NCBI GenBank assembly: GCA_963780185.1
Contig: CAWABA010000006.1
Span: forward strand, 608,001 to 672,000
DNA from: Candidatus Bathyarchaeota archaeon
GTDB lineage: Archaea > Thermoproteota > Bathyarchaeia > Bathyarchaeales > Bathycorpusculaceae
DNA: 64,000 nucleotides
Reading direction: 5' to 3'
Part shown: positions 11,198 through 55,953 of the stretch, in pieces
Layout: every line of letters starts with the position of its first letter
Numbering within the stretch: the first letter of the stretch is position 1
Translations under genes and position numbers: made by a program
The notes under the pieces: generated by a model
Databases searched by the model: none
Told to the model about the DNA's origin: nothing
Seen by the model: the letters and a program-made list of their open reading frames with translations, nothing else

Positions 11198-11488
11198 CTA
11201 TGCTTTTTGCTCTTTAGCCCATTCTTCTTTGACGAGTTTTGTTATGTTGTCAATGTTTGGCTGTGCGGTGAGGTCAAAGATTACGTTGTTTAGTTCGTTC
11301 TTTATTAGCAGGGCGATTTCGCCGGGTCGCAGAGGCTCTGGACGCGTCGATTGATAAACCCGCAGGGCACGCATGGCGAACTTTATCATAACGCATTGCA
11401 GTTCGTCCTGCAAATCCTGCAGTTCATTCTTGCTGTTTTTCATCAGTTTGTCGAAACCTTTCGAATCCCATTTTCCTTCATCTGCCAT
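11198..11488 (-). CDS. hypothetical protein
   Basis: Clean ORF downstream of pyrG, helical composition. Confidence 0.6.
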   Translation of the reverse strand: MADEGKWDSKGFDKLMKNSKNELQDLQDELQCVMIKFAMRALRVYQSTRPEPLRPGEIALLIKNELNNVIFDLTAQPNIDNITKLVKEEWAKEQKA

Positions 11489-11558
11489 TTCCAATCAAAT
11501 CCTAACGTTTCATGTAAACGGGGCATTATAGCCTTTTCTAAAAAAAGGGGTTACCTGC

Positions 11559-13187
11559 TTAGGAAATTGGGGTTTTTGGTTTTCCAAGTTTCTTGTTGAC
11601 GCATGCTTGGATGAATCCTGCGTATTCAGGTTCGGGTCTTCCGGGTCGGCTTTTGAATTCTCCGTGGAACTGCGATGCGAAGAAGAAGTATTTGTCGGGT
11701 AATTCTAGGGTTTCCATTCGTCGTCCGTCGCTGCTTTTGCCTGTGAAGCATAATCCGTTGTTTTTCTGGGTTTCTTGGTAGTCAAGGTTGACTTCGAAGC
11801 GGTGTCGGTGGCGCTCGTAGATTTCTTCCTGTTGGTACATGCTGTAGGCTAAGGTGCCTTTTTGGAGGACAACTTTGTGGGCGCCTAAACGCATGGTTGC
11901 ACCCTTAATTTCTATGCCGCGTTGCTCAGGCATCAGGTCGATGACTGGGAATGGGGTTTCTGGGTTGATTTCCGTGCTGTTCGCATCTTTGAGTCCGCAG
12001 ACGTTTCTTGAAAATTCGATGACGGCAAGTTGGAAGCCGTAGCAGATGCCGAGGAACGGGATGTCGTTTTCGCGGGCGAATTGGACAGCTAAAATCTTGC
12101 CTTCCGTACCTCGGGGTCCGAAGCCGTAGGGAACGAAGATGCCGTCGAAGTTGGCGAGGTCTGCGACGCATTGGGGATCATGCTCAAGTTTTTCTGCTTC
12201 AAGGTAGCTGATGCAGACTTTGGTTTTGCATGCGCCGCCGCCGTGCCTAAGCGCCTCGGTCATGCTTACGTAACTGTCAGTTAAACCAGCGTATTTGCCG
12301 ACCAACGCAATTTTGACTTCGTGTTCGGGGTGTATGAGGCCGTCGACGAATTGTTGCCATGTGCTGAAGTCTTTGCCTTCGCATTTGATGGCTAACCGTT
12401 GGCAGATAAAGTCGCCCATGCCTTGCCCATCCAAGATAAGCGGTACCTGATAGACGGATTCCGCGTTGTAGCTGCAGAATACTGCGCTTTCAGGGATCGT
12501 TCCGAATAACGCTATTTTTCTGAGGGCTTCAGCGTCAATCATTTTGGGGCTTCTAGCCACTATCGTATCTGGTTGGATACCGATGCCTCTTAACTCGTTA
12601 ATGCTGTGCTGTAAGGGTTTAGTTTTCATTTCTCCGGTGACATCTAAAATTGGAACCAAAGCCAAATGAACGTAAAGCGTGTTCTCATAGCCTTCCTCCA
12701 TACGCATCTGGCGGATGGCTTCAAGGAAGGGTAAGCCTTCGATGTCGCCGACTGTGCCGCCTACTTCGGTGAGAACGATGTCGGCGCAGGCTGATTTGCC
12801 GACGTTTCGGATGCGGCTTTTGATTTCGTTAGTTACATGCGGCACAATTTGGACGCATCGCCCAAGGAAGTCGCCTCGCCGCTCTTTCTCAATGACGGAT
12901 TTGTAAACCATACCTGTGGTTAAGTTGTTTTCTTGTTTGAGGCTTAAATCCAAGAAACGTTCGTACCAGCCGAGGTCAAGGTCAGCTTCCCCGCCGTCGT
13001 CAGTAACATAGACTTCGCCGTGCATGTACGGGTTCATCGTTCCCGCGTCAACGTTTACGTAAGGGTCGATTTTAACCACTGTACACTTTAAGCCTCTTGC
13101 CTGCAGCATCTTTCCAATGGAAGAAGTCAATATTCCTTTGCCGACGGAACTTAACACGCCTCCCGTGATGAAAATGTACTTAACCAT
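11559..13187 (-). CDS. pyrG: CTP synthase
   Basis: [43 protein letters not shown]. Confidence 0.98.
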
Positions 13188-13490
13188 GATTTTCCCCGCA
13201 ATAACCACACCTTTCATGCAATCTTAATATAACTCTTTTGTGTGCACAGCTGCAAAAACGTGCAACCAACCATGGTTAAAAATAACAAAACAAACAGGAA
13301 AACAGGAGGCAGACGTGCATTTGCGGTTGAATTCCAGCGGCGTCGTTTCCTAGATTTTTCCTTTTCAAACGCTTCACGTGAAGTAAAAAACCAATGAATT
13401 TCTCGGTTTCGTCCATCTTGAGCGAAAGGGTTTGCCTTTACTTCAGAAAAATTTTAATTGGCACTGTGCTAGATATGAGTGGAGACTGAA

Positions 13491-13724
13491 ATGCCTAAAG
13501 CCTTTGTGTTGATAAATGTTGAGTCGGGCTCGGAAGAAGAAGTTCTTGAGCAAATCAAAAAAAGCGAAGGGGTAGAAGAAGCATACTATTCCTATGGGGT
13601 ATACGACATCATTGCCAAGATAAAAGCCGAAACCATGGAGAAACTTAGGGAAGCCGTGTCGCAGAAAATGAGAACCATCAGCAAAGTCAGATCCACATTG
13701 ACTCTTATAATGATGGAAGAATAA
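13491..13724 (+). CDS. stand-alone Lrp/AsnC ligand-binding (RAM) domain protein #1
   Basis: AFVLINVE..GVEEA...YGVYDIIAK...STLTLI; no HTH. Confidence 0.9.
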   Translation: MPKAFVLINVESGSEEEVLEQIKKSEGVEEAYYSYGVYDIIAKIKAETMEKLREAVSQKMRTISKVRSTLTLIMMEE

Positions 13725-13916
13725 GAAACATTTTGGCTCCAAGTTTTTTCCCTCAGAACGGGCGCAACCTGCACCTCCTGCATAAAAAATAACCAGAAAA
13801 GCCCAGCCCAGACGTAACCCTGAACCGTTTTTGCGTCTCAAGCAGCGGCGGAGTTTCTTTGCGTATTGCTTAATAGTTTAGCCGCTGAAAGGTAAGGGAA
13901 GGCTTGGAAATTCAAC

Positions 13917-14945
13917 ATGGAACCCGCTGGAAAACCCTTGGGGCAAAAGGTGATTCTTGCAGTTCTGATTTTAGGTCTCTTCGCCTTCCTACTCTACTTC
14001 TTCCTGTACATCAAACCTGCAGAGGTCGCCAAGATTCTATCAAAAACAAACTTGGCAATTTACTCCGTTGCATTCGTCGCTTACATCGCCTACACCCTGT
14101 TCTCCTCGCTTGTGTGGCGCAGCCTCCTTGGCAGCCTCTCCGTAGAAATCAGCACCCGCAAAGCATTGCTCTTCACTTGGGTCGGCTTGTTTTTCGACGC
14201 CACCGTTCCGCAACTCGGATGGTCAGGCGAAATCTCGAAAACTTACATGTTAACCAAAGACTCAAGCCTCAGCGCGGGAAAAATCGGAGCGTCGGTTGTG
14301 AGCCAAAAAATCTTCAACATGACAATAACCGTTGTAGCTATGTCGCTTGGGTTAGGAGTGATGCTTGTCGGTTACCCTCTGCCTCTTCTTGTGACCTTTC
14401 TGATTTCTCTTGTTTTAAGCCTGCTAATTCTTACCTTAGTCTTGGTCTACCTCATAAGCGTCAAGCCGTCCGCCACCAAAACCTTGCTGAACTGGGCGGT
14501 ACGCATGATTTCGTTTTTCAAAAAAACATGGAACCCACAAAACTTCAAGGCTAAAGCAGAAGGACTCCTGTCTACGTTCCATGTCGGGATGCAGAATATG
14601 AAGGCTAACCGAAAAGCGTTGGTTAAGCCAATCATTTATTCGGTTACAAGTTTTATTCTTGAAATCTCAGTTACATTCATCACTTTTGTCGCTTTAGGCT
14701 ATCCTGTGCCCGTGGATAAGGTGCTTGTAGTGTTTACTTTAACGGGGACGCTTCAAACGGTCGGCTTTGCTTTCTTCGGTTTTCCCGAGTTAATAATGAC
14801 CGTGTCATACACTGCCCTCGGAATCCCTGTTGCGCTTGGCGTTTCAGTTACCTTGCTTACGAGGGTGGTGAGCCTTTGGTTCCGTCTTGTCGTTTCCTAC
14901 GCTGCTTTCCAGTGGGCTGGAATAAAAGTTATGCTTAACAAGTAA
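13917..14945 (+). CDS. flippase-like membrane protein (UPF0104 / LPG synthase TM family)
   Basis: Multi-TM; W.SLL...FF...P.....GE..K motif. Confidence 0.8.
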   Translation: MEPAGKPLGQKVILAVLILGLFAFLLYFFLYIKPAEVAKILSKTNLAIYSVAFVAYIAYTLFSSLVWRSLLGSLSVEISTRKALLFTWVGLFFDATVPQLGWSGEISKTYMLTKDSSLSAGKIGASVVSQKIFNMTITVVAMSLGLGVMLVGYPLPLLVTFLISLVLSLLILTLVLVYLISVKPSATKTLLNWAVRMISFFKKTWNPQNFKAKAEGLLSTFHVGMQNMKANRKALVKPIIYSVTSFILEISVTFITFVALGYPVPVDKVLVVFTLTGTLQTVGFAFFGFPELIMTVSYTALGIPVALGVSVTLLTRVVSLWFRLVVSYAAFQWAGIKVMLNK

Positions 14946-41934: not shown

Positions 41935-42228
41935 ACGGGAATAATCACGCATTACGGCTACAGCGACGGGTCAGGCGAATATTACGTAACCATCGACACC
42001 GACAAATGCAGCGGCTGCGGCAAATGCGTTAAGGCGTGCCCGATGGGGGCGCTTCAGTTGGAAGCCATGTTCATAGACCTCGAAGACAAAACAGTCGTTT
42101 CAGTCACCGAGGAGCAACGAAAAAAAATCAAATACACCTGCGGCACATGCAAACCCGAAACCAACCAAACCCCATGTGTGCTGGCTTGCGACGGCAAAGC
42201 AATCCGTTGCACATGGAAACCCCAATAA
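41935..42228 (+). CDS. ferredoxin (resembles those of bzd clusters); non-canonical start
   Basis: HYGYSDGSGEYYVTIDTDKCSGCGKCVKACP...CGTC..PCVLAC; AGGAGG upstream. Confidence 0.8.
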   Translation, partial: TGIITHYGYSDGSGEYYVTIDTDKCSGCGKCVKACPMGALQLEAMFIDLEDKTVVSVTEEQRKKIKYTCGTCKPETNQTPCVLACDGKAIRCTWKPQ

Positions 42229-42271
42229 ATTTCCCTGATTTACAAGGATGTTTAAGGGCAATCAAATCAAT

Positions 42272-42673
42272 TTAAATTAATTCGAGCATTTTTTGAACGG
42301 TGACTATCTTGATTCCTCTGAAATCGTGCAGCGCCAAAAGATGGCTATCTCCACTTACAATCATGTCGGCGTTCGCGTCATAAGCGGTTTCAATAATCAT
42401 ATCGTCTTTAGGATCTGCTTTAACTGCCTCGAGCTTTGACGTTACTCTTACAAATTCGGAAGACCCTTTCAGCGTGAGTATAATCATGTTGATTTCTTCT
42501 TTGCCTATCTTGAATTCTGATCGACTCAGCACGCTTTCAAGTTCTTGCAAAATTAAGTCAGAGATAATGATAGAAAATCGGTTCGCCATTCCTCTTCGTA
42601 AAAGCTCTCTTGATCTACCGTTAGAAATTGTGGCGCTCACTAGAACGTTAGTGTCAAGAACAACCCTGAGCAT
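42272..42673 (-). CDS. PIN-domain toxin (VapC-like)
   Basis: VVLDTNVLVS, DPKDD, IVSGDSHLL. Confidence 0.9.
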   Translation of the reverse strand: MLRVVLDTNVLVSATISNGRSRELLRRGMANRFSIIISDLILQELESVLSRSEFKIGKEEINMIILTLKGSSEFVRVTSKLEAVKADPKDDMIIETAYDANADMIVSGDSHLLALHDFRGIKIVTVQKMLELI

Positions 42674-42686
42674 TTGATCATCCTAA

Positions 42687-42959
42687 TTATTTGCGGTAAT
42701 GCTCTTTCCTAACTTCTGACACTATTTCCTGGATTTCTTCCTCTGAAATGTTCAGATGTTTTTTGTCCATCATTTCAAAGATTTTTTCCCACTCTTTTTT
42801 CATGTCGGGCAGCTCCAGCTTTTTGAGAATGATGGTGTCGCCTTTGCCGTAGACGAGGAACTTGTTTTTCGGTTTTATTTTAAGCTCTTTTCGTATGGAC
42901 TGTGGGATGACTACTTGGCCTTTTTCGCTGATTGTTGTAACTTGTGGCTCTTCTGACAT
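42687..42959 (-). CDS. AbrB/MazE-family antitoxin
   Basis: TISEKGQVVIPQSIRKEL. Confidence 0.9.
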   Translation of the reverse strand: MSEEPQVTTISEKGQVVIPQSIRKELKIKPKNKFLVYGKGDTIILKKLELPDMKKEWEKIFEMMDKKHLNISEEEIQEIVSEVRKEHYRK

Positions 42960-43024
42960 TTAGCATCAGTAAGAATAGTTTACTTTCACACTATTAATAA
43001 GTTGCGAAAAGAATCCGAGTTTTC

Positions 43025-43255
43025 ACTTTCAGTTACCTCTCCACTGTTTGGAAGTGTCTTTTCTGCAGTTGGCTTATTAGGGAAAGTAGCCAAATCTGCT
43101 CTTCTGCTATGTAAAACGAGGCGTTTAGTATGTTAAAAAGCATCAATTCAACATGCAAACTCACGCAGTCAACTTCTATGTTGAACCATGTTGAATCATA
43201 TTTGAAGCATATTAGAAGCATCTAGTTGACCGAGGGGTAGCTGTTGCATTCAAAC
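43025..43255 (+). repeat. 231-bp inverted repeat, copy A
   Basis: Reverse complement of 49188-49418; 125-bp identical core 43102-43226; no indels. Confidence 0.95.
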
Positions 43256-43288
43256 GCCAACGGGCGCGAGGGCGCTTTGAATCTTAAA

Positions 43289-44107
43289 TTATGGAGCGAT
43301 TTTTATTGATGTCATTGTTAGTGAGCCTGCGACTGGTTTGTCGTTGAAGAACGTTATTATCTCGTTTTTTTCTTTCAGCGCCAAGGCGTAGAGCAGGGGC
43401 AGATAATGTTCGGGCGTGGGTATAGCCAAGTTGAACGCGGTGCCTTGGGAGCGATAATTAATTAGCTGCTCATGCTCGCCGTTTAGGATATGTTTCTTCA
43501 TTTTCTCGTTGGCTTCAAGAGCCCAATCGTACCCGTACCCTGCCATGTCCATGTTCTCCCAGTCAACCAGTCCCAGATTATGCACCATGTTCCCGCTTCC
43601 AACAATCAACACGCCCTGCCTGCGAAGCGACGAAAGCTGCCTAGCCAGCGAGTAATGAAATTCCGCGTCTTTGAAGTGATCCAGGCTAAGCTGCACAATT
43701 GGGACATCGGCGTCGGGGTAAAAATGTTTCAGCACGATCCAGCAGCCGTGATCGAGACCCCACTCGTAATCCAGCTTTACGTCGGCTTTTTTGACGGTGT
43801 CCGCGACTTCTTTGGCAATGGCTAGACTGCCTGGTGCGGGGTATTGCACGTTGCAGAGTTCTTGTGGGAACCCGTAGAAGTCATGGATGGTTTTTGGTTG
43901 ATCCATCGCGGTTACAGCGGTGCCGCGTGTTTCCCAATGAGCCGACACACACAGCACTGCGGTAGGCTTGGGAATCGTCGCCGCAGCCTCCCTGAAGCCC
44001 TCTACAAACTCGTTTTCTTCGATGGCGTTCATGGGGCTGCCGTGACCTACAAACAGCACAGGCATCGGCTTTTCGCCTTTTGAGCCGCTGGTTTTTTCAT
44101 TTGCCAT
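43289..44107 (-). CDS. 4,5-DOPA extradiol dioxygenase (YgiD/LigB family)
   Basis: GHGSPMNA, SAHW, IHDFYGFP, GLDHG, GSGNMVHNL, PTPEHYLPL. Confidence 0.92.
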   Translation of the reverse strand: MANEKTSGSKGEKPMPVLFVGHGSPMNAIEENEFVEGFREAAATIPKPTAVLCVSAHWETRGTAVTAMDQPKTIHDFYGFPQELCNVQYPAPGSLAIAKEVADTVKKADVKLDYEWGLDHGCWIVLKHFYPDADVPIVQLSLDHFKDAEFHYSLARQLSSLRRQGVLIVGSGNMVHNLGLVDWENMDMAGYGYDWALEANEKMKKHILNGEHEQLINYRSQGTAFNLAIPTPEHYLPLLYALALKEKNEIITFFNDKPVAGSLTMTSIKIAP

Positions 44108-44329
44108 TCTGTTAGCCGATAGATACAGGCGGAGAATGTTTCAATAAACTTTTCTTTAGCAAGATGTAACAAGCCAAATTGGACAGACGCGTCACGGTTT
44201 TTGCGTCTATTTGGTTCATCTAGATGTCCCTATTTGGATCCTATAGAAAACCGTCGGGGGGCTGGGTACGAAAAAATAAAAAGCTGCCCGTGGAAAAACC
44301 AGCCCGAAAAAACAAGCCAGCCCTTTTCT

Positions 44330-44569
44330 TCAGCTTTTTGCCGAGGTTTTGGAGGTTGCCATTTCGGCGAAGTCGTAGCGTAGGAGTCGGTGTTTGCATT
44401 TGGTGTTTTTGCAGCCGTAGAGGAATAGGTTGGGGTTGCCGTGGTTGACGGTTAGGGCTTGGGTGGTGGATTTGCAGTTGGCGCAGGGTGCGGCGCGGAC
44501 TTGATCGTTTGTTATGTAGCCTTGGAGGAGCCTGACGCTCCATGGTTTATCCTTAAAAGAAGTCAACAC
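44330..44569 (-). CDS. small zinc-finger-like protein
   Basis: CANC...CKNTKC; GAGGTGA SD upstream; preceded by palindromic element copy 4. Confidence 0.6.
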   Translation of the reverse strand: MLTSFKDKPWSVRLLQGYITNDQVRAAPCANCKSTTQALTVNHGNPNLFLYGCKNTKCKHRLLRYDFAEMATSKTSAKS

Positions 44570-44656
44570 AAAAAATCACCTCAGCAAAACGGGGTTGCCA
44601 CGTGTGGGGACCGCCAAATCCAGCCAACACCATATGTTTAGACAAATAAATCGGTT

Positions 44657-44680
44657 TGTGACTGTCAAATCACAGCAACG
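44657..44680 (-). promoter_or_regulatory. palindromic upstream element, copy 4
   Basis: Minus strand reads CGTTGCTGT-GATTTG-ACAGTCACA then ATTTATTT. Confidence 0.65.
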
Positions 44681-44882
44681 CCCAACAAACCACGCGCCGA
44701 AGAGAAACCAAAGCATGCCTTCTCAAAAACCAAACCCAAACCCGCCAAACCCAAAACCCAAAAACCAGCAAAAACAAACTTTTCCTCCAGCTTCGGCGTC
44801 CTGATTCTGGATACTGACGGCGATTTCATAAGTTAGTTAAACACCGTCAACCAACAAGTCAGCGTAATATGGAGGAAAAAAA

Positions 44883-45062
44883 ATGAAAAATCTTGAAGAA
44901 AAAGACCGAAAACAGTTAGAAGCCAAAATGGCAAACGCCTTTCAAGAAAATATTCGTCAATTGTCAACAGAATTGCGTGAAATATTGCTAGATGACATGG
45001 TTACAGCATTCGAAAATAGACTAAAAGTGTTAAACCGCATAGGCAAAGAACCCCAAAACTAA
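44883..45062 (+). CDS. 59-aa hypothetical helical protein (below ORF-track cutoff)
   Basis: GGAGG SD; MKNLEEKDRKQLEAKMANAF...LLDDMVTAFENRLKVL. Confidence 0.65.
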   Translation: MKNLEEKDRKQLEAKMANAFQENIRQLSTELREILLDDMVTAFENRLKVLNRIGKEPQN

Positions 45063-45148
45063 CGCCGACAATGGACACCAATATTGATCCTCAATACATA
45101 AATGATTTATATATAAACCGATTACTAACTAAAAAAAGAGGAGTATAA

Positions 45149-45442
45149 GTGCGTCGATCAAAACTCGAAATGTATGTAGACATCCTATCAGTACTCGCCC
45201 ACAGAGGACCACTAAAACTGACACACGTAATGTACAAAGCAAACGTCAACTGCAGCGTCCTCAAAGAATACCTCGACTTCCTCATAAAACAAGGCCTAGT
45301 AGAAGAACGCACCGCAGGCAAACACCGACTCGTCTACGCAGTAACACAACGAGGCATAACAGTACTGAAATACTTCAAAGAACTAAAACAAGTCCTACCA
45401 ATAGTAGAGGAAGCCCGAAACCAAACACCAATCCCCTACTAA
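45149..45442 (+). CDS. archaeal winged-helix regulator
   Basis: RRSKLEMYVDIL..THVMYKANVN..YL.FL...YAVTQRG. Confidence 0.88.
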   Translation: MRRSKLEMYVDILSVLAHRGPLKLTHVMYKANVNCSVLKEYLDFLIKQGLVEERTAGKHRLVYAVTQRGITVLKYFKELKQVLPIVEEARNQTPIPY

Positions 45443-45652
45443 ACCTCACCACCCAATTTACCTCAATTCCAGCGAATCGTTTAATTTTCAATCAATTGTT
45501 TAATACTGAAAACATTGTTTTTTTTATTTGCTGTTTTGCGGTTGTGACTTAGTTGTTTGAAATATGTACTTCTGTTTCGTAATACTTAATAAACACTTAA
45601 GGGAACTGTAGATGTGCAAAACAAGTCAGGGGGTCTTGGTATTAAAGAGCAA

Positions 45653-46021
45653 ATGACGACCAAAGGGCCGATAGCCATTCTTGAGAAGATTGAGGAGAGT
45701 CTTGAGAGGTTGAATGAGAAGATGGAGGTTATTATTGAGATTCAGAAGAGTGGTGGTGATGGTGGGCGTGGGTCTGTTGTGTTGCCTGATGCGTCTTTGG
45801 ATGTTATGACGCTTTTGTCTATGCCGGATCATTTGCGTAAGACTGCGATGACGATTTGTCGTTGTGGTCGTGCGACTGCTGAGGAGATTTCTGTGTCTAC
45901 TTGTCGTGCGCGTGCGGTTGAGAGTGCGTATCTTAATCAGTTGGTGCTTATGGGGTATCTCAAGAAGGAGCGTAAGGGTCGGAAGGCTTATTTTTTTGTT
46001 GATGTTGAGGGGAGGAGTTGA
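45653..46021 (+). CDS. coiled-coil plus winged-helix protein
   Basis: N-terminal heptads; ATAEEIS..RARAVESAYLNQLV.MGYL. Confidence 0.75.
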   Translation: MTTKGPIAILEKIEESLERLNEKMEVIIEIQKSGGDGGRGSVVLPDASLDVMTLLSMPDHLRKTAMTICRCGRATAEEISVSTCRARAVESAYLNQLVLMGYLKKERKGRKAYFFVDVEGRS

Positions 46022-46806
46022 TGGGTTTGAGTAGGGTTATTGCTGTTCATTCGTATAAGGGTGGGACGGGTAAGACGTTGTTGTCGGTGAATTTGGCGGC
46101 GACGCTTGCGAAGGCAGGTAGAAAAGTCTGTGTTTTTGACCTTGACTTTCGTGCGCCAAGTCTCTTCGCTATCCTTAACGCTGAATCCGCCGGGCACTGG
46201 TTTAACGATTACCTCAACAACACTGCTGACATCGGCTCAGTTATGGTGGATTTAAGCGGACGCATCTCGGGCGGAGGCAAATTTTATGCTGCTTTGGCTA
46301 ATCCGGCGACGGAGGCGATCCGTGACATGTCATCGAAGGATCGGAAATGGGAAATGCGCGCGCTGGGCCGCCTGCTTGCGTTGAAGGAAACGTTGCTTGC
46401 CAGCCAAAAATTCGATTACCTGTTCTTCGACACGAGTCCAGGCTTGCAGTATTCGTCGATAAACGCGATTGTCGCGGCAGACTTTGTGATTGTGGCGACC
46501 ACAGGCGACCGCTCCGACGTGGACGGAACCAAACGCATGCTTGCCGAACTGTATAACCTGTTTGAGAAGAAGACGGGGTTGGTTCTGAACAAAGTGCTTG
46601 ATGCATCTGCCACCGCCAAGAAAGCGGAGATGGCTGCAAAAATCAAAGACGCCTACCAAGTGCCCCTGCTCGGCTTAGTGCCCTGCTTCTGCGAAGTTCT
46701 CCGCGCCGAAGGCAACTTCATATTCGCCGAAGACAAACCCAACCACCCATTCACCAAAATCCTCACGGAAATGGCCAAAAAAATAGAAACCCACGAACTA
46801 GAATAA
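46021..46806 (+). CDS. MinD/ParA-family ATPase
   Basis: KGGTGKT, DLDFRAP, DTSPG. Confidence 0.9.
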   Translation: MGLSRVIAVHSYKGGTGKTLLSVNLAATLAKAGRKVCVFDLDFRAPSLFAILNAESAGHWFNDYLNNTADIGSVMVDLSGRISGGGKFYAALANPATEAIRDMSSKDRKWEMRALGRLLALKETLLASQKFDYLFFDTSPGLQYSSINAIVAADFVIVATTGDRSDVDGTKRMLAELYNLFEKKTGLVLNKVLDASATAKKAEMAAKIKDAYQVPLLGLVPCFCEVLRAEGNFIFAEDKPNHPFTKILTEMAKKIETHELE

Positions 46807-46897
46807 CCCAACCCACACCCACCTTTCTTTAGGCATCCAACACTTCCACTGCCTTTCACGTGTACCCAGCCGACCACCCAACGTTTTCCTTAACTGC

Positions 46898-47164
46898 CTA
46901 CGCAAAGACCCGCATTTCACCCGGCTTCGTTTTAGACCCAGAAATCAACAACGACCCATTGTCTTCATCCAAAACAAAACCATGTTTCCTCACAAGCGCC
47001 TGCACATCCGTAAGGTTCCTTCCGTCAAGAAAATCAACATTTATCTTCAGCTCAAAATCCTTCCGAGAAACCTTATTCGGCGACAACGAAATGCTGCTTA
47101 CAAAAGCGTCTGGCATACACTTGCAAATCTCTTTGAAAATCTTAACAGCCTCGCGCCTACGCAT
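46898..47164 (-). CDS. hypothetical protein
   Basis: MRRREAVKIFKEICKCMP...; plausible ATG at 47164. Confidence 0.55.
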   Translation of the reverse strand: MRRREAVKIFKEICKCMPDAFVSSISLSPNKVSRKDFELKINVDFLDGRNLTDVQALVRKHGFVLDEDNGSLLISGSKTKPGEMRVFA

Positions 47165-47451
47165 GAAGCACACACGCAAATCACAAAGTATACAGCGACA
47201 GCTTAAGACAATTACTGACAAGCAAAAGTCAAAAAACACACGCGGGAACCTAAGCGTCAACATTCTTTTTGACAGGGCGTAATGGAAATTTTGCCTGAAA
47301 GAGAAATCGACGTACTTACTGGACAAAGTTAACTCATAGATGAACAATTGGCTGTCTCTGCATGCGCCATTTGCCACTTTTGTGGCAGACGTTTGGTTGA
47401 CTTCAGGGATAACTTCTATGCTATTCTGCCATCCAAGCGTCAACAAGCCTC

Positions 47452-48921
47452 TTAAAGAATGAAGGCTCCTACACCCGGCGGCGCCGCGCTCCCAGCAGCC
47501 TTACACGCCAGCGCCAACGCCATCAACTGGTCATCATGCTTCCCAATCGGATGCCAAAACTTTAGGTGAATCCGCTCCTGAGCCGTCCTCGGCTGCAAAT
47601 ACGCATACTCCTGCTCGTTAAGCTGCACAACCAGCGCCTTGTCGTCTCCAGCAATTTTGAGGCGCTTCTTCTCCATGAAGAGTTTGAGCTGGTTTAGCAT
47701 GTTTTCTTTTTCTGCGTCCGTGAAGAAGACGCCTTCAACCGAAGGAATGCTGATGTTGTTGAGTTCATCCACGATGGCGTCACCTATCCCGCCCTTATCA
47801 ACGTTTAGCCGCTCAAAATGGAAAACCTGCTCTGCCCGAGCCACGTAGCCGATGACCTCGGGGTAGCTGGTTCCCAGCGGAAACTGCCGCTTGTGGACAA
47901 GCCTTACGTCGCCGTTGTAGCTTTTCTGAACCACGGCAAGCACGCTAAAATCCATCTGTTTGCCAAGGTCTAAGCCCGCGTAGCAGGGTCCGAGGAGCTT
48001 CTGTTCGGGCTTGAGTTTCTCGATGTCTTCCACGTAAGCTTTGGCTGAATCTGGGTTGCCCAGCTCGGGATCAACACAGCCCACAATCAAGTCCATCGGG
48101 AAAAACGTATGCGTCGCCTCAACCCACAACCCCTCAACCTCACGCTGCCACTCCTCATGAGTCATAACCTCCTTCCACTCGTCAAGTTGGGCGGGGCTTA
48201 CCAGCGGGCTTTGGTAGCTGGCATAGTGGTGTACGCTGTAGCGTTTGGTGTCCAAAAACGCCTTGCGGAAAACATGGTCAGAACCCATCGGCGTCCCACT
48301 CATAACCAAGCTTGCGCCGGGTTTGGTGAGCATCATCATTATCTCGCTGGTTATCATTTCGCCTGGAACGATTGATGCCTCGTCAATGAAGACGTAGTCG
48401 GGGTGGTAGCCTCTGAGCCTATCTTTAGAGCATGGAAGAGCAACAATCCTCCCGCCCAAAGGCCGCTTCAGCCTTATTTGAGTGCGGGTTGTTCCAGGCT
48501 TCAAAACCATTTCCCTAAGCAACGGGTTACCATGGATAGTTGAGTAGCAGTAATCAAACATAATCATCGATTGCCGCTGAGTGCTGCTAATGATAAGGCT
48601 CTCTATCTTCGGCTTCGTGTATAAGAGCCAAAGGTTTTTTCTGCTAAAAACAAGGCTTTTACCCCAACCTCTCCCGCAAACAGCCACCTGCCTCGGGCTA
48701 CTATCCCGAAGGAGTTTCTGATGCTCAGGCGCGTTGATTAGCCATTTGTCGCCGCACATCAAAATGGCGAAGAAAACAGGGTCAGCGACAAGTTTAGATG
48801 CTACCTCTTTATGGGAAAGCAACTCTTTTAGGGCAGCTGGCTTTTCCAGCAACCTCTCGCAAATGGACGCCGCAAACGTTGGGTCGCTTGTTACCTGTGA
48901 TATGAAAGCCGTCTCTTCCAA
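47452..48921 (-). CDS. phage terminase large subunit (ATPase plus RNase H-like nuclease)
   Basis: Walker A CGRGWGKS, LRG, Walker B VFIDEA, motif III SGTP, nuclease GLDLGK..D and HDD..MALALA. Confidence 0.9.
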   Translation of the reverse strand: MEETAFISQVTSDPTFAASICERLLEKPAALKELLSHKEVASKLVADPVFFAILMCGDKWLINAPEHQKLLRDSSPRQVAVCGRGWGKSLVFSRKNLWLLYTKPKIESLIISSTQRQSMIMFDYCYSTIHGNPLLREMVLKPGTTRTQIRLKRPLGGRIVALPCSKDRLRGYHPDYVFIDEASIVPGEMITSEIMMMLTKPGASLVMSGTPMGSDHVFRKAFLDTKRYSVHHYASYQSPLVSPAQLDEWKEVMTHEEWQREVEGLWVEATHTFFPMDLIVGCVDPELGNPDSAKAYVEDIEKLKPEQKLLGPCYAGLDLGKQMDFSVLAVVQKSYNGDVRLVHKRQFPLGTSYPEVIGYVARAEQVFHFERLNVDKGGIGDAIVDELNNISIPSVEGVFFTDAEKENMLNQLKLFMEKKRLKIAGDDKALVVQLNEQEYAYLQPRTAQERIHLKFWHPIGKHDDQLMALALACKAAGSAAPPGVGAFIL

Positions 48922-49199
48922 GTCTTATAGTCCCTTCTGATTAACCTGCGCGCCTGAGGAGTAACGTCTCGGATAAAGTCGCCGAGAGTCGAATCGCTGA
49001 ACTCTGATTCTAGCCCTTTCTGATTTATCAACTTGTTCAAAAGGCTCGCATGATAGGCAATAGCATTTGCAACCCGCGTCTTCTCCTCTATGGAAAGCTC
49101 TTTCTTCTTTAGAGTCCTCTTCAATTCACGAAGAATCTCCCACTCAAGACTGATTAGTCTATCCTGATTAGGTGGCGGTCGCCTTGTGTTTGAATGCAA
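48891..49199 (-). CDS. putative terminase small subunit
   Basis: 102-aa basic helical ORF overlapping the terL start; GGGAGGT SD; assignment is positional. Confidence 0.55.
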   Translation of the reverse strand: MHSNTRRPPPNQDRLISLEWEILRELKRTLKKKELSIEEKTRVANAIAYHASLLNKLINQKGLESEFSDSTLGDFIRDVTPQARRLIRRDYKTWKRRLSYHR

Positions 49200-49418
49200 C
49201 GTCTACCTCCCGGTCTACTAGATGCTTCTAATATGCTTCAAATATGATTCAACATGGTTCAACATAGAAGTTGACTGCGTGAGTTTGCATGTTGAATTGA
49301 TGCTTTTTAACATACTAAACGCCTCGTTTTACATAGCAGAAATGTCGAGTCGGTTGTTTTCCCTAATAAGCCGACTACAGAAAAGACATACCCAACCAGT
49401 GGAGGGATAACTGAAAGT
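49188..49418 (-). repeat. 231-bp inverted repeat, copy B (upstream region of terS-terL)
   Basis: See copy A; includes the SD and first four codons of the terS-like ORF. Confidence 0.95.
49336..49418 (+). ncRNA. candidate structured RNA or 5' leader, transcribed outward; second copy at 43025-43107 on minus strand
   Basis: TTTTTAA at 49304; two stems with four compensatory changes between the copies. Confidence 0.5.
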
Positions 49419-49566
49419 AAGCTATCTTATTTTTTGAACCGCACACCTTTTTTTACTACAGGGTCTGTAGTGCTACAGGGTGTTTAGTAAATGCCGAAAA
49501 AACTTTTTGTTCTAGTCCTGATTCAATAGCAAACTTTATTTCCAGAAATAAGAGAATGAGACGGCT

Positions 49567-52392
49567 ATGGACAAGAACTTCGCTTTGGAAAAAGTCAAAG
49601 CCCTCACCGAAAAATATCAAGAAGCTGTGAAAGAGGGAAGGATCGCAAAGTACAATGAGGAAATGACTAAGAAGGATTTCATTCTTCCCTTGTTTGAGGC
49701 TCTCGGCTGGAAAACCACAGATTCAAGAGAAGTAACAGCCGAAGAGAAAATATCCAAGAAGAGAGTTGATTACGGTTTCAGGATTAACGATATTCCAAAA
49801 TTCTTCCTAGAAGCTAAATCGTTCAAAGAAGACCTGGACGAGAGAAAATACATTGAACAAGCCATAAGTTATTCTTGGCATAAAGGATGCACTTGGGCAG
49901 TATTAACAAATTTTGAAAGCGTAAAAATCTTTAATGCCGAAGTCAAAACCGAACACCCCTAGATGAGTCAACTTAAACCAACACTCCATTGTAACGAGTT
50001 TTTGGATAAATTTGATGAACTTTCGCTTCTGTCAAGAGAAAGTTTCGAAAAAGAACTTTTAGATAAAGAGGCAGAGAAATGGGGCAAAAAAGCAAAGAAA
50101 ATGCCCATCGATAAGCAACTGTTGGCTGACTTTACGCATTTCCGAGATATTCTTTCCAGGAACATTACAAAGCTCAATGGAAATAAGCATTTGAGCGAAG
50201 AAGAATTGGATGAATCGGTTCAGAGAATCTTAGACAGGCTAATTTTTATTAGGAATTGTGAAGATCGGGAACTTGAGCCTAAGATTCTCATCTCGAATTA
50301 TAGAGAATGGGAAAGTAAAGGCAGAGGGCAACTAATCAATAGTCTAAGAGAAACATTTTCTCACTTTGACGATGAATACAACAGTAAGATATTTGCTAAG
50401 CGCTTATGTGATGACTTGGATGTAGACAATGAAGTTCTGCATGAGGTAATAGAAGGGTTATACCGCAACAAAGACAATGAACCTTATGATTTTGCAATAA
50501 TTGATGCGGATGTTCTTGGGACAATTTATGAACAGTATTTAGGACATATTCTAAGAAAGACGGAAAAAAGAGCAAAAGTGACTGAAAACCATGCTCATAG
50601 GAAGGAACAGGGCATCTATTATACCCCAACTTTCATTGTAAAATACATAGTAGATAAAACCTTAGGAGAATTATTAAAAAGTAAAAAAATAGATGTTGAG
50701 AAAATCAGGGTTCTAGACCCTGCTTGTGGGTCTGGAAGCTTTCTGATAAAAGCTTTTGATGTGCTGAATGATTATTACAAAGAACACGACGAGAACTATA
50801 AGCAAACTCGACTAGATTTGGAATCAGGTATCCTCTTTAAAACAAAAAGTAGAATCTTGCAGAATAACATCTTTGGAGCTGACTTAGATAAGCAGGCAGT
50901 TGAAATTGCACAGCTTAATCTGCTATTAAAAATAGCAGAAAAAGGGCATCGTCTCCCATTGTTGGAACAAAACATCAAAAAAGGTAACTCAATAGTTGAT
51001 GAGGAAAAGACAGCAGGTTCAGTTGCCTTTGATTGGAACCAAGAATTCAAAGCAATTATGGATGAAGGTGGCTTTGATGTCGTAATTGGGAACCCACCGT
51101 ATGTTCGGCAAGAGGAATTGACTGAAATAAAGCCATACCTTGAGGCAACCTACGAAACCTACCATGGAATGGCGGACTTGTTCGTATATTTCTTTGAAAA
51201 AGAATTGAAGATACTTAAAGAAAATGGTTACTTTGGCATGATTGTTTCTAACAAATGGCTTAGAGCAGGTTATGGACGGAATCTTAGAAAATTCTTATCA
51301 GAATTCTGGATTGAAGAATTAATTGATTTTGGAGATTTGCCAGTATTCCCTGATGCGACAATATACCCTTGCATAATTCTAATGAAGAAAATTAAGAAGC
51401 AAAATCCGAAAATAAGAATCTGTAAAATGCAAACGTTGGAATTTGGTTCTCTTGAGGCTTATGTAAAAGACAATTCCTATTCAATTAACCAACCCGACTT
51501 GAGCGAAAAAGAATGGAACATTCAGAATAAAGGGGGGAATGAGTTACTTAGGAAAATACGGAATACAGGGATTTTAATTGAAGAGTATGTTGGCTCCAAT
51601 GTGTATTACGGTATCAAGACAGGTCTAAATGAAGCATTTATTATTGATGCGAAAAAGAGAGATGAGTTAATACATGAAGATTCAAAAAATCAGGAAATTA
51701 TCAAACCAATCATTAGCGGGGCGGAACTAAAACGGTATTCAATTAGGTCAAAGAAAAACTACATACTTTTTGCAAGAAGAGGTGTGGATATATCCCAATA
51801 TCCGTCCATTTTAAAACATCTGGAACAATTCAAAAATCAATTAACTCCTAAAAGAAGCAGAGACCAAGAAATTGGGCGAAAGCCTGGTCATTATAAATGG
51901 TATGAAATGCAAGACCCCACTGATTATTATAAGAAATTTGAAGAACCAAAGATACTGTGGGGAAATCTTACAACAAGGTCATCATTCTCTCTTGATGAGG
52001 TAAGCGGATTTTATGTCAATAATCCCGCATGTATTTTGCCAACCAATTCTAGATACGTTCTTGGCATCTTAAATTCTAAGCTGATGTCCTATTTTCTGAA
52101 ATCTATCTGTGCAGAAAGGCAGGGTGGCTTCATTGAGCAGAAGCCCGTTTACGTTTCTCAAGTTCGAATTAAGAAACCGACTGAAGCGCAAGAAATTGGT
52201 TTAACCCTGCAAGTGGAAAAAATGCTTCAGCTTAATGAAAAGCTACTTGAGATTGGCGACAAATTAACAGATGAACGCGCAAAAATTGAAAACGAAATAA
52301 AGAAAACTGATTCGACAATTGACGATTATGTTTACGCGATTTACGGCATAACTGACGCAGAGAAGAAAATCATAGAAAGTAATTCACAGTAA
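49567..52392 (+). CDS. Type IIG restriction-modification enzyme (REase, m6A MTase, TRD) interrupted by an in-frame TAG at 49960
   Basis: E..TK..FI.P, VDY..LEAK nuclease; GIYYTP, DPACGSG, NPPY; TaqI_C-like C-terminus; AT-rich relative to flanks. Confidence 0.9.
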
Positions 52393-52420
52393 GAAAATTA
52401 CCTAATCGGATGGATAATCT

Positions 52421-52855
52421 GTGGATAAACGAGTCTTGAATTGGTTACTAGAAAACAAAGGCAAAGTCTTTCCCTCGCCTAGAGATGAGGCGTTTGGAAG
52501 CAATACCAAAGATTTTGAAATAAGCAGTATTACGCAAGGTCGGGTCTACATAAAATTTGGCGGAAATAAATACGAAGCTTTACCGTTAGTTTTCCCAATG
52601 TTTGACCGCATTTTGGACTACTTGGCGAAAAACAAAACTAGGGCAGTTCGTATTGGTGCAAAAATCATTCCGCCGTACGACAACGACTCTCTTGAAGGTG
52701 CCATTTGGAAAGAACCGTATCCAGTTGGCACTGTTCCATACAAGGCATCCCCGCATGTATGTGACATTTTGTGTTTAGCTGGTTTAATCAAGTACGTTTC
52801 TGCGATTAATCCGATGACAGGCAGACGAGTGCAAGCCGTCAAGCTCAGAGAGTGA
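52421..52855 (+). CDS. hypothetical protein (defence-island context)
   Basis: Clean ORF; GTGA overlap with next gene. Confidence 0.6.
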   Translation: MDKRVLNWLLENKGKVFPSPRDEAFGSNTKDFEISSITQGRVYIKFGGNKYEALPLVFPMFDRILDYLAKNKTRAVRIGAKIIPPYDNDSLEGAIWKEPYPVGTVPYKASPHVCDILCLAGLIKYVSAINPMTGRRVQAVKLRE

Positions 52856-53755
52856 GTGTCTTGGATATCAAAGTTGCAGACGAAGTTTGGATTGGTTGTG
52901 CATTTCTTCATAAAGAAAACCCTCAAGAACTCGGATTCTCAAACAGTCAAATCGTAGACCGCATAAGGCAGGAGAACATCTTTGGGTCAATTAGACCTGG
53001 AATCCAAATACACATCTCAACACACTGCGTCGCCAACACTCCGGCCCAACCCAACAAATGCCGCATGTTATACAAACTGCCCGATGGAAGAAAACGCCTT
53101 TTTAAAGAAACGGACGACTTTCACGAAAGTCGTCAAAATGGAAAAACAACTCCAAACACGGAAGATATCCCTAAGAAATACCTTTTCCTGATAGATTGGT
53201 ACGTGAGTGAATACAATAATGAGAGCAAGAGAACTGAAATTCCGCCCCCTCTTCCACAGCCGCCTATTCCTACCAAGATTATTTCGTTGAAAGAAAATCA
53301 ACTTCAAGAGTTTACTTACAAATGTCCGAAGCCAACAAAGTCTAGGTCCTGCAAAGATTGTGCGCTATTCTTAGGGGAAGATACCATAAAGAGGTCTCTT
53401 GAAGCCGCGCTATCAGCTGAAGGCTGGAAAGTAAAGACATCAATGGGCAGGAAACACGGCATAGACATAATCGCGACAGACAAACAAGACCATGTAATGC
53501 TCATAGAAGCAAAAGGTGAAGGCTCAAGAAATGCAATGCGAGTCAACTACTTTCTAATGGTTCTCGGTGAGTCTGCTACAAAAGATGGATTCATCAAACA
53601 AAATTTACGGGTTGGCGCTTCCTGCATACCGGCAGTATGCAAATCTTGTTATTAATTTGCCTGATTGGATAAAGCACCAATTGAAACTTAGAATTTATTT
53701 GGTTAAGCAACAAGAAAGCGGCGAATATCAGATCGGCTTGGTTGAATACAATTAA
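52852..53755 (+). CDS. two-domain protein with C-terminal PD-(D/E)xK nuclease, frameshift near 53570
   Basis: HGIDIIA...IEAKG; continues LLQKMD..YGLALP in ORF 53567-53755. Confidence 0.65.
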
Positions 53756-53889
53756 GCCAAGTTTGCGCGCAAAAACGGGTGGATTAGGTCAGTTTGAACC
53801 CCCGCCCGAATGGAGACGCCACTCCCAAAACCCATTTTTCTAAAGATTAAATAGATAATCCGTTCAATTGGTTGGTAATGGCGGGTTAA

Positions 53890-55167
53890 TTGGATAGAGA
53901 TTTTCTCGTAGATTACAAATACAGAGAGGATGAATACTATACCAGATTTGTTGAGGACATCTGCAACCGAAAGTTCGTCATCGGGAAAGATGAATCACCT
54001 TACAAGAATAGGTACGTAAACCTTCAAAGACCTGTTACAGAGTTGAACAGATCGAATGAAAACAAATTCAAGGAGACTATGTGGGCCCAGATTCCTTTCA
54101 GCGGCTCCTCAATTATTGCTTTGCCCGCCTTTTCTAAGGTTGATTTTGAGGAACAGTTCTTTGACACAAGAGATATACCCAAAATTGTAGATTTCATAAA
54201 GGAAACGGGAAGGCTTCAATTTGCCCTTCCAGATTACATATTAGATTATGAAGGGCTTGATTTCTTGGACCCGATATTTCTCGAACTAAAGCCTCCTGCA
54301 TATCATTTGACGCCTATGGGAGCATTTGCGTCGGACGAGGAAATACGAAATGCAATCAACGAGTTTACGACGGTTGCAGAAATCAACTTTACAAAGTTTT
54401 TGGATTTTCGCAAAGCAGAAGGAGTACCACTACGAAATCTCGTGTCTGCTTATGTAGGCGCTCAGATGACTTTTGTGACCCTTAAACTAACCAAAAATTC
54501 TCTCGCCAGAGAGGCTGAAAAGCTTTTGGTTGATGATCCAGTTCAAGCCATAAGGCTCTTGGCGCTTGCTAATATTTTTATTGAAATTCCTGCGTTTAAT
54601 TTGCTTGTAAATAGTTTTAATTTTCCAATGGATCGAATCAAAGAAGCAGAATTGTATCCTGTGAATGTTCACCCAAAAAACATTCAATTTGAACATGAGA
54701 TAGGGAAGTTCTTGCTAACAAAACTGACATATGCCCCTCAAGGTTTGGATGCATGCAAAGAAATAATGTATCGATATGACAAAAACGACCTGCGAAAAGT
54801 GCAAAAATCCTTGAATCAATCCATAGTAGAAAACAATCCTCAAGCTGTTAACTCAAGCGCCATCGAGTTATCAGAGATTCTCGGAAACGTTTGGGACGAC
54901 AAAACGATACCCCTAAGAATTAAAGGCTTGAAAATCGGTCTACCCCTTTCAATGGCCGCGATTGGAAGCGTTGCGGCTGGACCGATAGGCACAGCAAGCG
55001 GCTTGCTCGCTGGACTTGGATTTGATGTCTTAAACCAGATGATAGACCTGAAGACCGATGGACTATCGGAAAAACTTGCAAAAATTAAAACTAAAAGCTA
55101 TCAAGCAAACATTTACGATTTCAAGGCAAAATATAAAGACCGAATGGTCTTAGATCGCCCAACATAG
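53890..55167 (+). CDS. hypothetical protein
   Basis: 425-aa ORF, AT-rich, Gly/Ala-rich hydrophobic hairpin near the C-terminus. Confidence 0.65.
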   Translation: MDRDFLVDYKYREDEYYTRFVEDICNRKFVIGKDESPYKNRYVNLQRPVTELNRSNENKFKETMWAQIPFSGSSIIALPAFSKVDFEEQFFDTRDIPKIVDFIKETGRLQFALPDYILDYEGLDFLDPIFLELKPPAYHLTPMGAFASDEEIRNAINEFTTVAEINFTKFLDFRKAEGVPLRNLVSAYVGAQMTFVTLKLTKNSLAREAEKLLVDDPVQAIRLLALANIFIEIPAFNLLVNSFNFPMDRIKEAELYPVNVHPKNIQFEHEIGKFLLTKLTYAPQGLDACKEIMYRYDKNDLRKVQKSLNQSIVENNPQAVNSSAIELSEILGNVWDDKTIPLRIKGLKIGLPLSMAAIGSVAAGPIGTASGLLAGLGFDVLNQMIDLKTDGLSEKLAKIKTKSYQANIYDFKAKYKDRMVLDRPT

Positions 55168-55323
55168 CAACAGAGGATTTGGTCCAAAGAGTAGGAGAGG
55201 AAATTCACCCCCAATGCATCTGGAGATTTCAGCTGCGAGACACATCTTTTTAATTCTTGTTTGCGTTTGCTCCGTATGTTTTTTTAACTGGTTTTGCAAT
55301 TTATGGGTGGAGAGTTTGTTTGC

Positions 55324-55953
55324 ATGGATAGATCTGCTATTATCTTGGCTGTGGATTCGCGGGGCGAGTTCAGTGAGGACAAGGCGTTTTTGAAAGTTGA
55401 CGGCAAGCCTTTGCTGAATCGCGTTGTCGACGCGGTTAAGGGCATTGTCGGCGAAGTCTTGGTGGTTACTGCCTCAAAGGAGCAGTCGGACTTGTATGGC
55501 AAGTTGGTTTCGTCGGCTAACGTTCAGTTTGCCGAAATTGATGATGCGCCGAAGGGGGATTTGGCTGCTGCACTGGCGGGTTTGGAGGTTGCGCAGGGCG
55601 ATTATTCAGTGCTTTTGCCATTTGATGCGCCGTTTATTTCCAGAGAGGTTGTGTCGCTGCTTTTCGACTTGTCACCACGCAAGTCTGCGGTTGTGCCCCG
55701 TTGGCCTGACTGCTTGTGTGAGCCTTTGCAGTCGGTTTATCATTCTGAGTTGGCGATGGCGGCGGCGCAAAAAGCGTTGGCTGCAGGCGAGTCTGGGGCA
55801 GAGGCAATCGCTGGCTGTCTGCGTGGGGTACGCTATATTTCAACGTTGGTTATTGAGCAGTTGGATCCTGACTTCAAAACTTTCTTTCGGGTTACCACGC
55901 CTCTGGATCTGAAGCAAGCCGCGGTGATGGCTAAGCCTCGAAGGCACCAATAG
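55324..55953 (+). CDS. MobA-like nucleotidyltransferase with degenerate motifs
   Basis: DKAFL..GKPLL, DAPFIS, VPRW...EPL..VY, FFRVTTP.DL. Confidence 0.75.
   Translation: MDRSAIILAVDSRGEFSEDKAFLKVDGKPLLNRVVDAVKGIVGEVLVVTASKEQSDLYGKLVSSANVQFAEIDDAPKGDLAAALAGLEVAQGDYSVLLPFDAPFISREVVSLLFDLSPRKSAVVPRWPDCLCEPLQSVYHSELAMAAAQKALAAGESGAEAIAGCLRGVRYISTLVIEQLDPDFKTFFRVTTPLDLKQAAVMAKPRRHQ

Follow-up and report, generated by a model that had tools for sequence, protein, structure and literature searches.

The window analysed here, a 64-kb stretch of the genome of a Candidatus Bathyarchaeota archaeon (GCA_963780185.1; G000 in the following, 13 contigs and 2.75 Mb), contains two inverted copies of a 231-bp sequence at positions 43025-43255 (arm A) and 49188-49418 (arm B), which bracket an interior of about 6 kb. 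An AbrB-PIN toxin-antitoxin pair lies outside arm A and a Type IIG restriction-modification (R-M) gene outside arm B, while a terminase gene pair, terS-terL, starts in the inner end of arm B. The arms probably represent a lineage-specific inverted duplication of an intergenic control region, which was generated via local rearrangement and later homogenised by gene conversion.

This reading is based on a DNA search of 40 other genomes of the genus with 42270-55200, followed by tblastn and nhmmer on regions. In G031 (locus L044), which like G043 belongs to a sister species, the PIN (10441-10839, minus strand) and AbrB (10856-11125, minus) genes are followed by a single outer+M1 region (11207-11444, plus; the two modules are described below), TerS (11422-11712, plus), TerL (11694-13088, plus) and ParA (13224-13997, minus), beyond which come o135, a winged-helix (wHTH) gene, o59, an o182-like gene and a second M1, all on the minus strand. 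G043 shares this order, except that a variant module stands in place of part of M1. In the nucleotide alignment, the AbrB side of the single region of these two genomes proved to be the ortholog of copy A plus the DNA to its left, and the terS side that of copy B, so that the repeat appears to be the divergent AbrB-PIN/terS-terL intergenic region, which is single in these two relatives and duplicated in the G000 lineage. The initial annotation of the window had considered, as a finding against its own reading, that relatives might carry a single copy inside complete proviruses; the single copy was found in G031 and G043, but not within complete proviruses.

Structure of the arms

An inverted-repeat search over 10.5 kb returned the arms as 43008-43255 and 49188-49435, with 248 nt, 88% complementarity and a distance of 5932 nt. 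The second-longest inverted pair in the same interval comprises only 37 nt at 73%, so that the match between the arms is far above chance. The gap-free inverted copies with a 125-bp identical core described in the initial annotation were recovered: when 43025-43255 is compared with 49188-49418, 209 of 231 bases are identical, and the longest identical run extends over 125 nt (43102-43226 in copy A, 49217-49341 in copy B). The 22 differing positions cluster outside this run, with no mismatch in the 125 nt of the core versus 17 in the 102 nt of the outer part (43025-43126; 85/102 identical; Fisher p 5.6e-7). The ends of the copies, which had been called sharp, are fairly so, but beyond the end at ACTGAAAGT a weak similarity continues for ~17 nt (9/17 identical). 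The bases flanking the arms (...CCGAGTTTTC before arm A and AAGCTATCTT... after arm B) differ and show no direct target-site duplication. The palindromes quoted earlier were found in the sequence, and no comparable inverted repeats surround the other terminase loci of G000.

Copy B ends with GGAGGT-N6-TTG CAT TCA AAC, the start of a 102-aa terS-like open reading frame (ORF), and thus holds the upstream region, the Shine-Dalgarno sequence and the first four codons of terS-terL, as had been noted; copy A has the identical letters, but here the 3′ end of a convergent LigB-like gene comes next. Each arm is a composite of two dispersed modules, an outer one of ~100 bp and an inner one termed M1. 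In arm A, on the plus strand, the outer module (ACTTTCAG...GGCTTATTAGGG...; 43025-43121) is a putative upstream or promoter module of the terS type, and is followed by M1 (43122-43275, the nhmmer match reaching to 43275), a member of a 13-copy family, with phased T(T/A)GAA-type boxes, GGAGG and TTGCATTCAAAC, and then by the GC hairpin and T-run tail of the family type to ~43310. Arm B, the upstream region of terS-terL-o182 on the minus strand (49188-49418), consists of M1 (49188-49321) and the outer module (49322-49418), and is orthologous to the terS-proximal part of the intergenic region of G031. An ORF of 62 aa present in each arm was considered as a gene and rejected, having no family match and being broken in 35 of 38 copies of the M1 family.

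The outer module is significantly similar to two other sites, one located upstream of a terS-like paralog (G000:C6:741.0-741.15k) and one at C1:235.7k: the local alignment scores are 38 and 45, where shuffling gave means of 16.8 and 16.5 (SD 2.5 and 2.3), and nhmmer agrees. In G004 it is located directly upstream of terS, without an intervening M1. The outer module is probably the native upstream region of terS. Both G043 and the paralog have GGCTTAAAAGG as its TATA-like box, which in G000 is degenerate. The paralog itself (G000:C6:740696-741150; L119 7694-8150) is solitary, 43% identical and preceded by the outer module; it adjoins a Rieske-domain gene and has no TerL nearby.

The identical run (43102-43226) is a probable gene-conversion tract. 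Some of the M1 columns within it are quite different in G000 and G031, and their conservation across the family is no more than weak to moderate, so that constraint alone does not explain the identity and a recent homogenisation fits better. We infer from this pattern that the core was made identical by gene conversion between the arms.

Just outside arm B, at 49440-49480, a hairpin-rich motif (...CCCTGTAGCACTACAGACCCTGTAGTAAAAAAA, minus strand) was observed, which is met again in another assembly, beside an M1 copy (L077), and in G004, where it follows the ferredoxin operon (L024); it may be a further small dispersed repeat or a terminator.

The M1 family

M1 comprises the inner half of the arm, ~43122 to 43255 including the supposed terS start, i.e. 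about 135-150 bp, and is present in 13 copies on seven contigs of G000; no TerL or TerS paralogs were found near the 11 copies outside the arms. An exact-pattern scan for the M1 core returned 59 loci in nine other assemblies, with 1-18 matches each, all of which are titled as metagenome-assembled genomes of Bathyarchaeia or Bathyarchaeota, and no match in the viral contigs of IMG/VR. In an alignment of 50 copies, a block of 64 columns has a mean top-base frequency of 0.91, as compared with 0.47 in the flanks. Several copies are 93-97% identical between species over ~67 nt, and the copy at C4:78.7k is found at the same position in G031 and G043. Since the core is far better conserved than the flanks and some copies are positionally conserved, M1 looks selected rather than selfish. 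The block, (TC)TATGTTGAAC TATGTTGAATC ATATTTGAAGC ATATTAGAAGC ATCTAGTAGAC, can be read as five boxes of the T(T/A)GAA type at a spacing of ~10-11 bp, after which come a G-rich run resembling a Shine-Dalgarno sequence and TTG/GTG.

The stand-alone copies of G000 carry a variable GC-rich hairpin with a T-run 25-35 nt after TTGCATTCAAAC, which fits a short transcription unit of ~60 nt. The M1 of copy B lacks the hairpin and T-run tail, and the sequence continues into terS. The terS start is located inside M1 in G000 and in G031 (GTG CAC ACA... in the latter), and inside the variant module in G043; as read from the sequence, M1 would supply the ribosome-binding site and start codon of terS.

Among the repeats that are dispersed between the genes of prokaryotes are REP and ERIC sequences, the enterobacterial RU units, miniature transposable elements with inverted repeats (MITEs) and mobile promoters. 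M1 is similar to these in being short, non-coding and multi-copy (13 in G000, 1-18 pattern matches per related assembly) with unique flanks, and it could supply expression signals to an adjacent gene. It differs from them in that no terminal inverted repeats are visible in the family alignment and that it shows no clear target duplication and no stable hairpin. We conclude that M1 is likely to be an element selected at the DNA level, either a cassette with promoter/operator function or a gene for an unstructured short RNA, rather than a typical MITE.

It is possible, if rather doubtful, that M1 is not a cis-acting DNA site but a small-RNA or micro-ORF gene with its own promoter, one arm copy of which became fused to terS. 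The hairpin and T-run of the stand-alone copies would suit a transcript of ~60 nt; the genes near M1 are unrelated and many are convergent (malic enzyme, AIR-synthase-like, DUF1697, M20 peptidase), and the positionally conserved C4:78.7k copy, together with the 93-97% core identity between species at several loci, would also be expected of such a gene. On the other hand, RNAalifold predicted only 21 weak pairs for ten copies (-6.4 kcal/mol), with almost no covariation, and no pairs at all for 50 copies, while the sole match in an Rfam scan of eight M1 loci was a neighbouring tRNA. A possible 13-codon ORF is not kept in relatives, where start codons vary or are missing and frameshifts occur, and 35 of 38 copies show an interruption of the reverse-strand 62-aa ORF in its first 20 codons. 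The sequence was not found among public RNA runs; among the DNA runs, one contained a tenth of the sequence words sampled. A regulon defined by M1 was also considered and rejected, the genes checked downstream of the stand-alone copies being unrelated (co-oriented malic enzyme, AIR-synthase-like and an unknown gene; convergent DUF1697 and M20 peptidase).

At a locus adjacent to a tRNA gene, M1 is present in G000, diverged in G013 and absent in G014, with other DNA in G016. The spacer between the promoter of the tRNA and that of the next gene (L009 1540-1990 compared with L010, L013 and L014) measures 89 nt in G014, ~290 nt in G013 with the diverged M1, ~410 nt in G000 with M1 and the M2 module described below, and ~810 nt in G016 with the other DNA. 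The pentanucleotide TAAGC is found at both edges of the insert in G013 and G016 at this one locus, and may be a target duplication or a chance match.

Origin of the duplication and alternative readings

G000 and G031 are collinear with respect to the left-hand M1, the ParA block, terL, terS, the control region and the NTP-transferase gene, and two inverted M1 copies bracket the same block in G031 and G043. The interior has one and the same orientation towards the NTP-transferase gene in G000, G031 and G043. Two differences distinguish G000 from G031: AbrB-PIN and the outer module are located left of the left-hand M1, 44 nt from a ferredoxin gene, and the Type IIG island occupies the place of AbrB-PIN on the terS side. 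Synteny with all five relatives compared stops at ~42230-42260, just past the ferredoxin gene, and the relatives continue with genes that are 75-95 kb away in G000. Orthologs of genes located at C6:556k, 576k and 691k in G000 are found there in all five. The 44 nt between the ferredoxin gene and PIN (42228-42272) are a synteny breakpoint specific to G000. The junction between ParA and the NTP-transferase gene is a variable-insertion hotspot: among six genomes it is empty in two (G003, G014), holds an insert of ~8.5 kb including terS-terL in three (G000, G031, G043) and a different insert of 8.8 kb in one (G049).

We propose that AbrB-PIN and the outer module were brought to the left-hand side of a second M1, one already resident beyond the wHTH-ParA block, and that the Type IIG R-M island took the place of AbrB-PIN on the terS side, so that a 231-bp inverted duplication around ~6 kb would have resulted. 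AbrB-PIN and the control region may have been copied or moved in a step anchored on M1 homology, with loss or replacement at the original side, and later homologous recombination (gene conversion) between the arms would have made 125 bp identical. Inverted duplications occur at rearrangement breakpoints, and gene conversion between inverted repeats is known. The arms resemble such cases in being inverted copies of a region that is single in relatives and in having a homogenised central tract, but the interior is not inverted relative to the right-hand flank, so that the event looks like a relocation or copying of AbrB-PIN and the control region and not like a two-break inversion. A descent of copy A from the M1 that follows the ferredoxin operon of relatives was considered and rejected: that M1 adjoins a Rieske-like gene, the G000 homolog of which is located on contig C1.

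At present, arm B most likely drives terS-terL-o182, and arm A would be an M1 unit standing by itself, with an output that reaches the hairpin and T-run of this same unit, located where the LigB-like gene has its 3′ end. AbrB-PIN appears to use its own promoter outside the repeat: the AbrB 5′ region (42960-43024), which lies outside the duplication and aligns, in G031 and G043, with that part of their single intergenic region which is next to AbrB, contains a putative promoter with a TATA-like box (TTATTAATA, ~42995-43003). The region between AbrB-PIN and the divergent operon in G031 and G043 is similar to the divergent promoter/operator regions of VapBC-type (AbrB-PIN) systems, also in that direct TGAAAGT(G/A)AA boxes flank the TATA-like box of AbrB; it differs from these in that the duplicated part lacks the promoter-proximal DNA of AbrB and mostly serves the terS side. 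The bidirectional control or packaging element proposed in the initial annotation is retained as an intergenic control region between outward-reading operons in a variable spot, without the packaging role. The additional suggestion that the repeat marks sites of cargo insertion found no support, with the AbrB promoter region outside the repeat and only two flank states known.

Several points weigh against this account of the arms. The rearrangement route cannot be reconstructed, as copying and loss would need two steps and no known mechanism explains the far junction between the ferredoxin gene and PIN with its 44-nt spacer. A simple crossover inversion between inverted M1 copies is excluded, since the interior would then be reversed with respect to the NTP-transferase gene, and three species keep its orientation. 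The left-hand M1 of G031 has no adjoining outer module, so that the origin proposed for the outer part of arm A is presumptive, as are the promoter, ribosome-binding and terminator roles. Furthermore, for three of the 11 M1 copies located outside the arms, a co-oriented gene that was checked with Pfam lies no more than ~370 nt away (malic enzyme, AIR-synthase-like and one unknown), and the others face convergent genes or short ORFs; because the neighbouring genes are unrelated or convergent, M1 is not a simple promoter of protein genes. The TATA-like boxes of M1 also differ from the TTTAAAA-type boxes at the tRNA gene and at the neighbouring gene.

Gene conversion implies that the arms have recombined, so that an inversion is possible in principle, and the initial annotation had suggested that the interior could invert by recombination in the identical core. 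Homologous recombination in the 125-bp core, independent of any recombinase, would flip the 6-kb interior, re-create the AbrB-intergenic region-terS junction and change the genes that face the output of M1. The identical core between diverged flanks indicates past recombination between the arms, G031 and G043 also carry two inverted M1 copies around the same block, and flipping the interior would restore the order AbrB-intergenic region-terS of G031. Nevertheless, we consider such an invertible bracket unlikely: the interiors of G000, G031 and G043 are alike relative to the NTP-transferase gene, with no orientation polymorphism, no recombinase family is matched in the window, and the interior holds the conserved chromosomal ParA block, with nothing that suggests a phase-variable function. 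Invertible DNA switches are known from the Hin/Gin/Cin and Fim systems and from shufflons. The locus is reminiscent of these in that inverted repeats (231-248 nt, 5.9 kb apart) bracket a segment with putative expression signals at its ends, but differs in the lack of a site-specific recombinase among the families found, in arms of 231 bp as opposed to short core sites, and in the single orientation observed in the three genomes.

A mobile element with the arms as its terminal inverted repeats, or a pac-like terminase site that marks cargo insertion, is a very improbable reading of the arms. The arms are inverted and their outer ends fairly sharp, terS adjoins arm B, and the genes beyond the outer end differ among genomes; moreover, as in phage pac and cos sites next to terS, repeated short boxes lie immediately upstream of a terS-like gene. 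However, no transposase or integrase was found inside or nearby, the flanking bases show no direct duplication, relatives have one copy, and the interior is mostly a genus-wide chromosomal block, variability being confined to the side of terS-terL. The boxes are those of a chromosomal family that is unlinked to terminase genes and whose core pattern is absent from IMG/VR, and a packaging role is therefore unsupported. In addition, neither the viral contig L037 nor G004 has an M1 upstream of terS, and no head, portal or tail genes are found within ~8 kb. Finally, an assembly artefact is scarcely credible, since the 22 of 231 differences clustered outside the core are not the pattern expected of a collapsed or duplicated repeat, the 17% divergence of the outer parts argues against an assembly duplicate, the junctions of AbrB with arm A and of arm B with terS each have an ortholog in G031, and the order from the interior to the NTP-transferase gene is that of relatives, even though this is a metagenome-type assembly of 13 contigs and three public read runs gave short, low-depth contigs, mostly those of relatives, none of which bridges either arm junction.

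Had the first description held, the locus would have represented a mobile or switchable unit of a new kind. On the evidence it comes down to an ordinary process, the lineage-specific inverted duplication of an intergenic region being a known kind of event. The M1 family, copies of which are found at the junctions of rearranged blocks in G000, is a testable candidate for an archaeal regulatory or small-RNA element.

The terminase pair and the surrounding genes

The large terminase subunit TerL (47452-48921, minus strand) matches phrog_2 (E 2.9e-33, residues 64-473) and PF03237 (E 2.4e-05, over the cut-off), and is 81-83% identical to the TerL proteins of G031, G043 and G004; compared with G031, dN is 0.10 and dS is saturated. 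The 102-aa TerS-like protein (48891-49199, minus) overlaps TerL, and its TTG start and first four codons are located in the M1 of arm B. Homologs precede TerL in G031, G043, G004 and the viral contig L037, and the TerS-like ORF is thus upstream of and overlapping TerL in five loci, including a contig of a head-tailed virus. It has no match in Pfam, PHROGs or PDB profiles, and among PDB sequences nothing below E 0.3, and the TerS label is a purely positional one. A further gene, o182 (46898-47446, minus), starts 5 nt downstream of TerL and encodes an unknown protein without match in Pfam, PHROGs, PADLOC or the Atlas. Over its C-terminal half it shares 54-56% identity with a gene that G031 and G043 carry near M1, and G049 has a homolog as well. 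These homologs (L044 15989-16267, L045 2851-3138, L047 12969-13229) are found on the other side of the ParA block in G031, G043 and G049, with an M1 copy 360-420 nt upstream in G031 and G043, and in G043 M1 is present on both sides.

No head, portal or tail families were found in 42-56 kb of the window with Pfam and PHROGs. In G031 a convergent ParA gene directly follows terL, and in G004 the pair is at a different locus, between a PEP-synthase-like gene and other host genes according to Pfam. The pair is an orphan in three of the four genomes with a close copy (G000, G031, G004), whereas in G043 it occupies the same locus with its other neighbours unscanned; its coordinates are 4978-6834 in L048 (G004:C25) and 11207-13088 in L044 (G031:C9). 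Purifying selection acts on the pairs in several species. An IMG/VR contig carries a TerL of 73% identity behind tail-tube, gp10-like and fibre-like genes, so that the cassette derives from head-tailed viruses. The position of an orphan terS-terL beside toxin-antitoxin and restriction genes raises the question of which role a lone terminase has for its archaeal host.

In the literature on terminases and proviruses of Bathyarchaeia, dispersed repeats and orphan archaeal terminases, neither a repeat family of the M1 type nor orphan terminase pairs were found described. A provirus of 47 kb with a terminase has been reported, and a term search of that article gave none of the repeat terms (PMC11697101). 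It may be speculated, with considerable scepticism, that soil and peat Bathyarchaeia possess in M1 a family not described so far and maintained by selection, either a portable promoter and ribosome-binding cassette or an unstructured small-RNA gene, composed of the phased boxes spaced ~10-11 bp, which serves as a homology substrate for rearrangements. An inverted pair of M1 would here bracket, and recombine across, a domesticated orphan terS-terL(-o182); as close copies of this cassette occur in four species and are under purifying selection, it would have a host function in defence or DNA transfer, and not be the debris of a provirus.

Left of arm A, the PIN-domain, VapC-like toxin (42272-42673, minus; PF13470 PIN_3, E 2.3e-19) has a G031 ortholog of 70% protein identity, and the VapB-like antitoxin of the AbrB/MazE fold (42687-42959, minus; PF04014, E 4.4e-07; phrog_4681 antitoxin) shares 93% protein identity with G031 and G043. 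The interior contains LigB-like, wHTH, o135, ParA, o182, TerL and TerS-like genes and no transposase, and PHROGs revealed no recombinase there. The absence of a visible recombinase, reported in the initial annotation, was confirmed with Pfam, no recombinase, integrase or transposase family being matched among the 66 ORFs scanned across the window. The LigB/Memo-like gene (43289-44107, minus; PF02900, E 9.5e-23) lies between the M1 of copy A and M2, and its DNA is found on the other side of the NTP-transferase gene in G010, G035 and G002. The conserved block o59-wHTH (HTH_45)-o135-ParA (44883-46806, plus; Pfam) was detected at the DNA level in most of the 40 other genomes of the genus. This cassette normally adjoins the NTP_transf_3 gene, and its wHTH has several paralogs per genome; its gene order presumably resembles that of archaeal AspA-ParB-ParA or SegAB-type partition cassettes.

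Right of arm B, the Type IIG R-M gene (49567-52392, plus) contains an in-frame TAG at 49960-49962 and the Pfam domains HSDR_N, Eco57I, N6_Mtase and TaqI_C. A single IIG profile of PADLOC, PDLC03604, spans both ORFs, with positions 8-141 in the 131-aa part and 157-1003 in the 809-aa part. A search for PylS in G000, which is 93% complete, returned nothing above the family cut-off, so that pyrrolysine read-through is a less likely explanation than a gene which was split by a nonsense codon or inactivated. The remainder of the variable island (52421-55167, plus) consists of three ORFs of 144, 267 and 425 aa without match in Pfam, PHROGs or PADLOC. The outward-reading defence cargo described at first is thus confirmed for AbrB-PIN and for the Type IIG gene, split by TAG, but not for the supposed nuclease island, which corresponds to these three ORFs. 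The conserved right boundary of the island is the NTP_transf_3 gene (55294-55953, plus; PF12804, E 3e-21).

The M2 module (44194-44288, plus; nhmmer HMM positions 253-347, E 7.8e-30) is 95% identical to the copy at C4:71k and directly follows M1 at eight other G000 loci. In the interior it is solitary, and at copy A it is exactly the LigB-like gene that separates M1 from M2. M2 (GTCTATTTGGCTCATCTAGATGTCCCTATTTGGATCATCTAGAAAACCGTAGGGG...) is itself dispersed, being found at 44194-44288 and at ~20 other loci of G000. Two further modules often follow M2 at a spacing of ~62 nt, both with short hairpins ending in ...AAAAATG, and a 17-nt unit, CTATTTGGNNCATCTAG, occurs 59 times with up to two mismatches.

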